Made by a program: the position numbers and the translations under genes | Origin: Escherichia coli | GTDB lineage: Bacteria > Pseudomonadota > Gammaproteobacteria > Enterobacterales > Enterobacteriaceae | Assembly: GCF_030013595.1 (NCBI RefSeq) | Contig: NZ_CP122768.1 | Length of the DNA stretch: 64,000 nt | Direction: 5' to 3' (one strand) | Notes under the pieces: model-generated | The model's database searches: none | What the model saw: the letters and a program-made list of their open reading frames with translations, nothing else | Told to the model about the DNA's origin: nothing | Shown here: piece by piece, positions 9,334-12,610 of the stretch | Layout: each line of letters begins with the position of its first letter | How positions within the stretch are numbered: position 1 is the first letter of the stretch

Positions 9334-9620
9334 TGGCGTATTTTCTGGATTTTGACGAGCGGGCACTAAAGGAATGGCGAAAGCTGGGCTCGACGGTACG
9401 TGAACAGTTGAAAAAGAAGCTGGTTGAAGTAATTGAGTCACCCCGGATTGAAGCAAACAAGCTCCGTGGTATGCCTGATTGTTACAAGATTAAGCTCCGG
9501 TCTTCAGGCTATCGCCTTGTATACCAGGTTATAGACGAGAAAGTTGTCGTTTTCGTGATTTCTGTTGGGAAAAGAGAACGCTCGGAAGTATATAGCGAGG
9601 CGGTCAAACGCATTCTCTGA
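9333..9620 (+). CDS. relE: mRNA interferase toxin RelE
   Basis: 95 aa MAYFLDFDERALKEWRKLGSTVREQLKKKL... matches RelE; start overlaps relB stop. Confidence 0.9.
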   Translation: MAYFLDFDERALKEWRKLGSTVREQLKKKLVEVIESPRIEANKLRGMPDCYKIKLRSSGYRLVYQVIDEKVVVFVISVGKRERSEVYSEAVKRIL

Positions 9621-9691
9621 ACCAAAGCATGACATCTCTGTTTCGCACCGAAGGTGACACTTCTGCTTTGCGTTGACAGGAGAAGCAGGCT

Positions 9692-9847
9692 ATGAAGCAG
9701 CAAAAGGCGATGTTAATCGCCCTGATCGTCATCTGTTTAACCGTCATAGTGACGGCACTGGTAACGAGGAAAGACCTCTGCGAGGTACGAATCCGAACCG
9801 GCCAGACGGAGGTCGCTGTCTTCACAGCTTACGAACCTGAGGAGTAA
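9692..9847 (+). CDS. hokD: Hok-family type I toxin HokD (RelF), 51 aa
   Basis: Translation MKQQKAMLIALIVICLTVIVTALVTRKDLCEVRIRTGQTEVAVFTAYEPEE; below ORF-track size cut-off, found by reading. Confidence 0.8.
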   Translation: MKQQKAMLIALIVICLTVIVTALVTRKDLCEVRIRTGQTEVAVFTAYEPEE

Positions 9848-9915
9848 GAGACCCGGCGAGGGAGAAATCCCTCGCCACCTCTGATGTGTCAGGCATCCTC
9901 AACGCACCCGCACTT

Positions 9916-9945
9916 AACCCGCTTCGGCGGGTTTTTGTTTTTATT
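9916..9945 (+). terminator. Rho-independent terminator after relBE-hokD
   Basis: AACCCGC-TTCG-GCGGGTT hairpin followed by a T-run. Confidence 0.6.
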
Positions 9946-10063
9946 TTCAACGCGTTTGAAGTTCTGGACGGTGCCGGAATAGAATCAAAAATACTTAAGT
10001 AGCGCGCAGGGATAAGAGGGATGGTCCCTTAAAGGGGAGAGCTAATTATCCGGAAGGATTCTG

Positions 10064-10315
10064 ATGATGAACATCGAAGAACTGCGTAAAATTTTTTGTG
10101 AAGATGGCCTCTATGCTGTGTGCGTTGAAAATGGAAATCTTGTTAGTCATTACCGCATTATGTGTTTGCGAAAGAATGGGGCTGCGTTAATTAATTTTGT
10201 GGATGGTCGAGTGACAGACAGATTTATCTTGCGCGAAGGTGAGTTTGTCACTTCATTACAGGCACTGAAAGAGATCGGAATAAAAGCAGGCTTTTCAGCT
10301 TTTGCAGAAGAATAA
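10064..10315 (+). CDS. rem: Rem-like small prophage protein (83 aa)
   Basis: 83-aa ORF MMNIEELRKIFCEDGLYAVCVENG... at the position of rem between hokD and ydfU. Confidence 0.55.
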   Translation: MMNIEELRKIFCEDGLYAVCVENGNLVSHYRIMCLRKNGAALINFVDGRVTDRFILREGEFVTSLQALKEIGIKAGFSAFAEE

Positions 10316-10381
10316 ACTCATCTACAATCTTGCGCGGGGCTGAACTCCCGCTGAGTAACACCGTGCCACCGGAGAAAACCG

Positions 10382-10660
10382 ATGGCACGCAACGTAAAAT
10401 ATTACAATTCTGATAATTCGCCCGTTCTTGCCTGCACGCACGAGCGGTATTCTCACGCATTCAAGTCTGAATGGTTCCAACACCCTCCATGCACTGAAGA
10501 GCAGGCTGAATGGATAATTCAGTGTTACCGCAGGCGCGGATACGAGGTTAAGAAAGCCCTTAGTCTCGACTACCGTCACTGGATAATCTCAGTCAGATTG
10601 CCTTACTCCGAACGCCCACCACGTGCGTCCCGCACTTTCCAGCAACGGATCTGGAGGTAA
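10382..10660 (+). CDS. Hypothetical 92-aa protein immediately upstream of ydfU
   Basis: ORF ends 1 nt before the proposed ydfU GTG start; Cys/His-rich N-terminus. Confidence 0.4.
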   Translation: MARNVKYYNSDNSPVLACTHERYSHAFKSEWFQHPPCTEEQAEWIIQCYRRRGYEVKKALSLDYRHWIISVRLPYSERPPRASRTFQQRIWR

Positions 10661-10661
10661 C

Positions 10662-11711
10662 GTGCGGGTATTACTTAGACCTGTTCTGGTGCCTGAGCTT
10701 GGGCTGGTGGTCCTTAAGCCGGGCCGTGAATCCATACAGATATTTCATAATCCTCGAGTGCTGGTGGAACCGGAACCAAAAAGCATGCGTAATCTGCCAT
10801 CCGGAGTCGTTCCTGCCGTTGGCCAGCCGCTGGCGGAAGACAAAACATTGCTGCCGTTTTTTAGTAACGAACGGGTGATTCGTGCTGCTGGCGGCGTTGG
10901 CTCATTGTCTGACTGGCTATTACGTCATGTTACATCCTGCCAGTGGCCTAATGGCGATTACCATCACACTGAAACAGTCATTCACCGTTATGGTACCGGC
11001 GCAATGGTGTTGTGTTGGCACTGCGACAACCAACTGCGTGACCAGACATCGGAATCACTGGAGCTGCTTGCTCAACAAAATCTGACAGCATGGGTGATTG
11101 ACGTCATCCGTCACGCAATAAGCGGTACGCAGGAGCGGGAATTATCTTTGGCTGAATTATCCTGGTGGGCGGTCTGCAATCAGGTGGTGGATGCACTACC
11201 TGAGGCTGTATCGCGTCGTTCGCTGGGATTACCAGCGGAAAAAATCTGCTCGGTGTACCGCGAAAGCGACATCGTACCGGGAGAGCAGACCGCCACCAGC
11301 ATATTGAAACAACGCACAAAAAATCTTGCACCGTTGCCTTACGCCCACCAGCAACAAAAACTACCACAGGAAAAGACGGTGGTAAGCATCACCGTTGATC
11401 CAGAGTCTCCGGAATCTTTCATGAAGCTGCCTAAACGTCGCCGCTGGGTTAAGGAGAAATACACACGTTGGGTTAAGACACAGCCGTGTGCTTGCTGCGG
11501 TATGCCAGCCGACGATCCGCATCATCTGATTGGTCACGGGCAGGGCGGAATGGGAACAAAAGCACATGATCTCTTTGTGTTGCCTTTGTGCAGAAAGCAT
11601 CACAACGAGCTGCATACGGATACAGTGGCATTTGAAGAGAAGTATGGCTCCCAACTGGAGCTGATATTTCGTTTTATCGATCGCGCGCTGGCAATTGGCG
11701 TACTGGCGTAA
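10662..11711 (+). CDS. ydfU: YdfU-like DUF968 protein with C-terminal HNH-like nuclease motif
   Basis: GTG after GGAGG gives 349 aa; motif CACCG..DDPHHLIGHGQGG..LCRKHHNELH at 11487..11615. Confidence 0.65.
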   Translation: MRVLLRPVLVPELGLVVLKPGRESIQIFHNPRVLVEPEPKSMRNLPSGVVPAVGQPLAEDKTLLPFFSNERVIRAAGGVGSLSDWLLRHVTSCQWPNGDYHHTETVIHRYGTGAMVLCWHCDNQLRDQTSESLELLAQQNLTAWVIDVIRHAISGTQERELSLAELSWWAVCNQVVDALPEAVSRRSLGLPAEKICSVYRESDIVPGEQTATSILKQRTKNLAPLPYAHQQQKLPQEKTVVSITVDPESPESFMKLPKRRRWVKEKYTRWVKTQPCACCGMPADDPHHLIGHGQGGMGTKAHDLFVLPLCRKHHNELHTDTVAFEEKYGSQLELIFRFIDRALAIGVLA

Positions 11712-11724
11712 GTGGAGAACGAGC

Positions 11725-12477
11725 ATGAACCTTGAAGCCTTACCAAAATATTACTCCCCAAAATCTCCAAAATTGAGCGATGACGCTCCAGCGACAGGCA
11801 CCGGTTGTTTAACAATTACGGATGTAATGGCAGCGCAGGGGATGGTGCAGTCGAAAGCACCACTTGGGTTGGCCTTATTTCTGGCAAAAGTTGGTGTTCA
11901 GGACCCTCAGTTTGCGATTGAAGGCCTGCTAAATTACGCGATGGCACTGGATAACCCGACATTGAACAAATTGAGTGAAGAAATCCGGTTACAGATTATT
12001 CCTTACCTCGTGAGTTTTGCCTTTGCTGATTACTCCAGGTCTGCGGCAAGTAAGGCTCGCTGTGAGCATTGTTCAGGTACGGGATTTTATAATGTATTGC
12101 GCGAAGTGGTGAAACACTACAGACGCGGGGAATCTGTAATCAAGGAAGAATGGGTGAAGGAACTATGTCAGCATTGCCATGGTAAGGGCGAAGCCAGCAC
12201 AGCGTGCAGAGGGTGTAAGGGTAAAGGGATTGTTCTGGATGAAAAAAGAACCCGGTTTCATGGCGTACCGGTATATAAGATTTGTGGGCGTTGTAATGGA
12301 AACCGGTTTAGTCGTTTACCGACCACGCTGGCACGACGTCATGTCCAGAAGCTGGTACCAGACCTGACCGATTATCAGTGGTATAAGGGGTATGCGGACG
12401 TCATTGGTAAACTGGTAACAAAGTGCTGGCAGGAAGAAGCATACGCGGAAGCGCAATTGAGGAAGGTGACGAGATAA
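11725..12477 (+). CDS. quuQ: Late-gene antiterminator Q
   Basis: 250 aa from MNLEALPKYY with GGAG upstream; Cys-rich zinc-binding region (CEHCSGTGF..CQHCHGKG..CRGCKGKG); followed by promoter and terminator. Confidence 0.75.
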   Translation: MNLEALPKYYSPKSPKLSDDAPATGTGCLTITDVMAAQGMVQSKAPLGLALFLAKVGVQDPQFAIEGLLNYAMALDNPTLNKLSEEIRLQIIPYLVSFAFADYSRSAASKARCEHCSGTGFYNVLREVVKHYRRGESVIKEEWVKELCQHCHGKGEASTACRGCKGKGIVLDEKRTRFHGVPVYKICGRCNGNRFSRLPTTLARRHVQKLVPDLTDYQWYKGYADVIGKLVTKCWQEEAYAEAQLRKVTR

Positions 12478-12508
12478 ATGATTTTTGCTGAAGATGGCGA
12501 CATGATGT

Positions 12509-12538
12509 TTGCATTTTTCAAAAAATATGGATAAAATT
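12509..12538 (+). promoter_or_regulatory. Candidate late promoter (PR'-like)
   Basis: TTGCAT (12509..12514), 17-bp spacer, TAAAAT (12532..12537), about 35 bp after the Q stop. Confidence 0.4.
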
Positions 12539-12582
12539 TTTTCAACGATGGGCTTTGTATACCCGACGTTAAGAAAAAGTAG

Positions 12583-12610
12583 AAAACCCGCTGATGAGCG
12601 GGTTTTGTGC
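12583..12610 (+). terminator. Rho-independent terminator (tR'-like) downstream of late promoter
   Basis: CCCGCT-GATG-AGCGGG hairpin followed by TTTTGTGCTTT. Confidence 0.6.

Follow-up and report, generated by a model that had tools for sequence, protein, structure and literature searches.

The ORF92-ydfU region of an Escherichia coli genome is best explained as the distal part of the nin region in a lambdoid prophage of the Qin type, in which a two-part YdfU is predicted to be a metal-dependent DNA endonuclease in the nin-region nuclease slot and ORF92 an independent small nin protein. We give this reading as a whole a probability of about 0.62. Sequence comparisons and structural models establish the family membership and fold of the two proteins, the conservation of their residues, the coding status of ORF92 and the gene order. 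The window referred to below is the whole 64,000-nucleotide stretch of contig NZ_CP122768.1 that was analysed.

Organisation of the locus

The window contains a Qin-type lambdoid prophage with the gene order hokD, rem, ORF92, ydfU, Q, and all features given with coordinates here lie on the + strand. The gene rem (83 aa; 10064..10315), the upstream neighbour in Qin-type prophages, was assigned from the PGAP annotation of an identical RefSeq locus and from phrog_340. A Shine-Dalgarno-like GGAG read from the sequence (10371..10374) lies 7 nt 5' of the ATG of ORF92 (10382..10660), an intact 92-codon open reading frame of PHROG 1212. Its TAA stop ends at 10660 and is followed by one base and then by the GTG start of ydfU (10662..11711; 349 aa; DUF968, PHROG 96). 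The Q-type antiterminator gene ydfT/quuQ (11725..12477) is directly 3' of ydfU. RusA is missing between ydfU and Q here; most related loci have RusA at this position. A promoter and terminator consensus scan of 9600-12600 gave counts equal to the shuffled expectation and nothing usable within ORF92 or ydfU.

The ydfU gene of the window is the K-12 Qin ydfU gene in another strain. Its product is 98.6% identical to K-12 b1560 and of equal length, and the K-12 gene has the same neighbours (rem 5' and ydfT/quuQ 3') with no difference of substance. The start codon, which the earlier note had proposed to settle by alignment with K-12 ydfU, is the GTG at 10662, matching the start and the 349-aa length of b1560. 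Most full-length YdfU homologs also start at the GTG position, many of them only 30-50% identical. The ORF92-ydfU region was matched in 4920 of 5426 E. coli genomes, and the module is also found in the deposited phage genome mEp460_ev081.

The small gene ORF92

Judged by its pattern of sequence variation, ORF92 is a real, selected, separate and conserved small phage gene. Its description in the earlier note as unannotated holds for K-12 MG1655 and phage mEp460_ev081, but in RefSeq genomes PGAP annotates the product as a hypothetical protein, WP_032140164.1. Among 82 Qin-type copies (81 loci and the window; 41 unique sequences), ORF92 was intact in every one, none of the unique sequences contained a stop, and the length variants of 90 and 92 aa were in frame. 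The pN/pS of the whole frame was 0.23 compared to 0.33-1.6 in the other five frames, and 57 variable columns fell at the third codon position compared to 24 and 27 at positions 1 and 2. The conserved core of 66 residues (residues 27-92; 10460..10657) had a pN/pS of 0.12 and matched the whole phrog_1212 profile (1-66) with E = 1.7e-35. Its predicted model has a beta-alpha-beta-beta fold (pLDDT >90 at residues 30-70), followed by a conserved tail, PRxSRTFQQRIW. Residues 1-26 (10382..10459) form an N-terminal extension specific to Escherichia Qin-type loci that is predicted to be disordered (pLDDT <50) and has a pN/pS of 1.07, with no detectable purifying selection. Homologs in other lambdoid phages begin at ORF92 residue 26/27.

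The first viral-contig scan for ORF92 relatives returned near-identical Qin-type loci only, and the rerun was led by a distant member of the family. Homologs 31-46% identical are carried by phages from 11 or more genera or name groups, including Escherichia, Klebsiella, Salmonella, Edwardsiella, Yersinia, Cronobacter, Hafnia, Enterobacter, Citrobacter and Erwinia. None of 22 family members matched a Pfam model (including NinE, PF05322), no NCBIfam model matched ORF92 or YdfU, and the ORF92 family profile found nothing meaningful among PDB sequences. The only match to the ORF92 model in a BFVD fold search was its homolog Orf QD1 of phage N15.

The spacing from ORF92 to ydfU (stop, 1 nt, GTG) was fixed in all Qin-type loci, and the putative Shine-Dalgarno site of ydfU, GGAGG (10653..10657), coincides with the last two sense codons of ORF92 (TGG AGG). 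This position implies that the two genes may be translationally coupled, such that translation of ORF92 would feed ribosomes onto the weak ydfU GTG through the stop-1 nt-GTG junction and the embedded GGAGG. The proposal that ORF92 might be a misassigned N-terminus of YdfU fails, since ORF92 is in another frame, its stop is kept in 82/82 Qin-type copies and YdfU homologs start at the GTG. The identities of ORF92 and YdfU were uncoupled across loci (e.g. 99% versus 80%), and recombination breakpoints were located between the two genes.

The YdfU protein

YdfU matched the Pfam family DUF968 (PF06147) with residues 160-346 aligned to profile positions 1-171 (257.7 bits, cutoff 27.8, E = 7e-77) and PHROG 96, 'HNH endonuclease', over its full length (residues 1-349, profile 1-334, E = 5e-171). 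A borderline match to HNHc_6 (PF16784; 25.6 bits, ~1 bit under the cutoff of 26.6) covered the HNH part only (residues 271-328), RecA_dep_nuc (PF16786) reached 18.4 bits against a cutoff of 26.9, and the Pfam YbcO model did not match YdfU. The HNH assignment is not new and adds no new class, since Pfam, PHROGs and the literature already contain it. Jablonska et al. 2017 place YdfU by name in His-Me finger group 7, together with YbcO, and a role in recombination has been proposed (PMC5714182).

The C-terminal His-Me finger (HNH, beta-beta-alpha-metal) domain spans residues 262-349 (11445..11708). The motif that the earlier note had read as a nuclease signature, CACCG..DDPHHLIGHGQGG..LCRKHHNELH, is present in the frame of the GTG ORF at 10662 and extends from C276 to H318 (11487..11615), as the note had placed it. 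The YdfU model is confident; its C-terminal domain has the beta-hairpin and helix of the beta-beta-alpha metal finger fold and superposes on solved HNH domains. The closest structure is that of P1 Ref, over the generic HNH core only. PDB chain sequence searches with YdfU, both as a single sequence and as a homolog profile, gave no meaningful match, and the relation of YdfU to Ref and YbcO is seen at the fold level only.

In colicin E9 the catalytic residues follow an HH..N..H...H pattern, from which residue roles in YdfU can be proposed by analogy. YdfU has the pattern HH..N/D..H...H in H287-H288, D303, H314 and H318, and we propose these residues as the active site, with H288 as the general base. 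The treble-clef site residues C276, C279, C310 and H313 are all present and are the proposed ligands of a structural zinc. Among 36 homologs of 26-80% identity, H287 was kept in 32, H288 in 33, D303 in 36, H314 in 32 and H318 in 32. The zinc ligands (CCC[C/H]) were complete in 27/36, and one subclade has lost them. Given this subclade and the degenerate active sites in 4/36 members, not every protein of the family can be an enzyme. The HNH reading of the earlier note is thus upheld by the DUF968 and PHROG 96 matches, the superposable model, the catalytic histidines (kept in 32-33 of 36 diverse homologs) and the prior publication by name; of the HNH profiles, PHROG 96 was matched and HNHc_6 fell 1 bit short. 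The searchable literature yielded no biochemical data on YdfU or YbcO, so we infer the nuclease activity, substrate and zinc binding of YdfU from these comparisons.

The family-specific N-terminal region (residues 1-225; 10662..11336), which has no recognisable solved relative, is connected to the HNH domain by a predicted disordered linker (residues 228-242; 11343..11387; pLDDT <50). It contains a Cys/His cluster (C93, H101, C118-W119, C121, D122; 10938..11027) that we regard as a putative second zinc site on the basis of its conservation in homologs: C93 in 35/35, C/H101 in 35/36, C118 in 36/36, W119 in 35/36, H/C121 in 36/36 and D122 in 33/36. The cluster is probably a zinc module for DNA-structure recognition or protein contacts, its role being a guess since the region lacks a structural relative. 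A lambda Orf/NinB-like domain has been proposed in 'DUF968' proteins (PMC4118853), and an Orf/NinB (RAGNYA) domain N-terminal to the HNH domain was not found in YdfU.

The Cys/His segment was also considered as a second, degenerate HNH, a speculative reading. Alignment with hhalign of residues 80-140 to 262-330 and of residues 1-225 to 243-349 put the Cys/His elements in register without significance (P = 0.06-0.08, probability <1%). Apparent fusions in which the YdfU N-terminus is joined to tail-fibre, tip-attachment, portal or RusA domains (P0309, P0310, P0265, P0245, P0174 and others) were set aside as functional evidence. Among the fusions with contig counts (P0174, P0121-P0125), most rest on a single contig; the fusions combine late-gene modules that are unrelated, and they resemble the products of prophage deletion or of chimeric assembly.

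The nuclease slot of the nin region

In enterobacterial lambdoid phages, an ORF92 relative is usually followed by the gene of a His-Me nuclease (YdfU, YbcO or NinG), and such nucleases made up 69 of the 73 complete next genes. The gene after ydfU, in 101 YdfU loci, was RusA in 70 and Q in 28. DLP12 has the order ybcN-ninE-ybcO-rusA-quuD, phiES15 and mEp237 have the small gene, YbcO, RusA and Q, and SPN3UB and Edno5 have the small gene followed by NinG. YdfU sits in the gene slot of the short His-Me nuclease YbcO (DLP12, phage 82, phiES15) and of NinG/Rap (lambda-type phages), which is preceded by a small nin gene and followed by RusA and Q.

Discussion

With an intact active site in its HNH domain and a position in the YbcO/NinG slot, YdfU most likely functions as a metal-dependent DNA endonuclease. 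The protein consists of the ~225-residue family-specific region, a predicted flexible linker and a C-terminal, probably zinc-stabilised HNH domain. During lytic growth it would process intermediates of recombination or replication (D-loops, forks, branched DNA), acting alongside RusA where RusA exists. ORF92 is a small nin-region protein in its own right and belongs to PHROG 1212. In K-12 the region 5' of ydfU is a strong Rho-dependent terminator (PMC9160355), so both genes are expected to be largely silent in the cryptic prophage. The Qin copy has no RusA, a point counted against the main reading.

That ORF92 is not a gene at all, being either a chance reading frame in a regulatory or terminator region or a YdfU N-terminus lost by a wrong start, is scarcely credible. 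It would fit the missing annotation in K-12 MG1655 and mEp460_ev081, the Rho-dependent terminator mapped between rem and ydfU, where the RNA is C-rich relative to G, and the neutral evolution of residues 1-26. However, the core is under frame-specific purifying selection with in-frame length variants, it is predicted with confidence to fold compactly, and its homologs span the phage groups listed above; the frame, the conserved stop and the GTG start of the homologs argue against a lost N-terminus. As a genuine gene, ORF92 could form a dedicated two-protein system with YdfU that resembles an antitoxin-toxin or colicin-immunity pair; it would inhibit the nuclease or confer immunity to it, serve as its chaperone or be the subunit that sets its specificity. 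The adjacency and probable translational coupling of the two genes, the predominance of His-Me nucleases among the next genes, the listing of ydfU among 'toxic prophage genes' silenced by Rho, the label 'toxin to Rem' that the small gene bears in one phage record and an in-frame ORF92-YdfU fusion in one genome all speak for such a pair. Nevertheless, small proteins of one clade (70-97% identity to mEp237_051) are found in front of YbcO, of NinG or of an unrelated 139-aa protein, the next gene encodes a DnaQ-type exonuclease in N15 and a Dcm methylase in EhrS_59, and it has no known function in PY54 and Ecl_MII_001. The small gene is kept without a nuclease in L132, the upstream genes of distant YdfU homologs are unrelated, the identities of the two genes are uncoupled and PADLOC gave no match. 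In the loci compared, there was no specific co-inherited pairing of the kind expected of toxin-antitoxin or nuclease-immunity genes. We therefore consider a dedicated pair unlikely, and a gene order common to nin regions accounts better for the linkage. Of the partner role suggested in the earlier note, what stands is that the genes are usually adjacent and apparently coupled; exclusivity does not, as one clade precedes YbcO, NinG and YdfU as well as unrelated genes, and distant YdfU homologs lack ORF92. Also doubtful is a joint reading in which the PHROG 1212 protein serves nin-region nucleases as a dedicated accessory factor and the YdfU Cys/His module recognises branches as a second, degenerate His-Me finger. 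Here the PRPSRxxQQRIW tail would serve to dock on, or to control, the nuclease translated next (YdfU, YbcO, NinG or the N15 DnaQ-like exonuclease), and could, for example, hold it inactive until DNA substrates are present or recruit it to branched DNA or a host factor.

Other readings concern the activity of YdfU itself. Like P1 Ref, it might have little activity of its own, cut only within RecA filaments or D-loops and stimulate RecA-dependent recombination. This has a low probability: the RecA_dep_nuc score is under its cutoff, the N-terminus of Ref is disordered and basic compared to the folded 225-residue region of YdfU, and the likeness is limited to the generic HNH core. HNH proteins serve packaging and defence roles in other phages, and the earlier note had raised both roles for YdfU, which might be a terminase cofactor for cos cleavage or else a defence or superinfection-exclusion nuclease. 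We found no support for this and consider it very improbable: the place of ydfU is in the early-right (nin) operon, immediately 5' of RusA and Q and remote from the terminase genes, PADLOC found no match, and the closest relatives, YbcO and NinG, sit in the recombination slot.

In E. coli K-12, ydfU still counts among the 'y-ome' genes, and most E. coli genomes contain relatives of the module. Our analysis settles the ydfU start codon, identifies in the 92-codon ORF a selected gene still missing from the K-12 reference annotation, and indicates that the ORF92 family marks a conserved slot just 5' of the nin-region nuclease in enterobacterial lambdoid phages. It also presents YdfU as a long-form counterpart of YbcO, normally beside RusA, with a so far uncharacterised N-terminal Cys/His domain. 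Constructs and mutants can now be defined for a first biochemical test of this abundant family of predicted phage nucleases.

Among the known proteins compared here, N15 orf QD1 (UniProt O21966; PHROG 1212) is a true homolog of the ORF92 core, with a common C-terminal TFQQRIW tail. It lacks the ORF92 N-terminal extension, its core aligns from residue ~19, and the gene after it encodes, instead of an HNH protein, a DnaQ-type exonuclease that carries a Lar-like zinc ribbon. NinE (PF05322) of lambda and DLP12 is also small and occupies the ORF92-family slot between an Orf/YbcN-type gene and the nuclease; a relationship was rejected, as alignment of the family with DLP12 NinE gave P = 0.77 (hhalign) and position alone is shared. 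HNHc_6, whose gathering threshold YdfU does not reach, represents Orf-HNH fusions of Listeria and Staphylococcus phages. P1 Ref (PDB 3plw), a RecA-dependent HNH nuclease, differs from YdfU in its N-terminal architecture. The structure-specific endonuclease NinG/Rap of lambda (PF05766), whose substrates are D-loops and Holliday junctions (PMC5714182 citing Sharples), is a nin-region His-Me finger nuclease in a position equivalent to that of YdfU, with no sequence match to it. In SPN3UB, Edno5 and 24 viral contigs, a member of the ORF92 family precedes NinG, and RusA is usually missing in NinG phages, in contrast to YdfU and YbcO phages, where it is usual. YbcO (DUF1364, PF07102; PDB 3g27; DLP12, phage 82, mEp237, phiES15) is, at ~96 aa, essentially the HNH domain alone, whereas YdfU also has an N-terminal region of 225 residues that contains a Cys/His cluster of its own.

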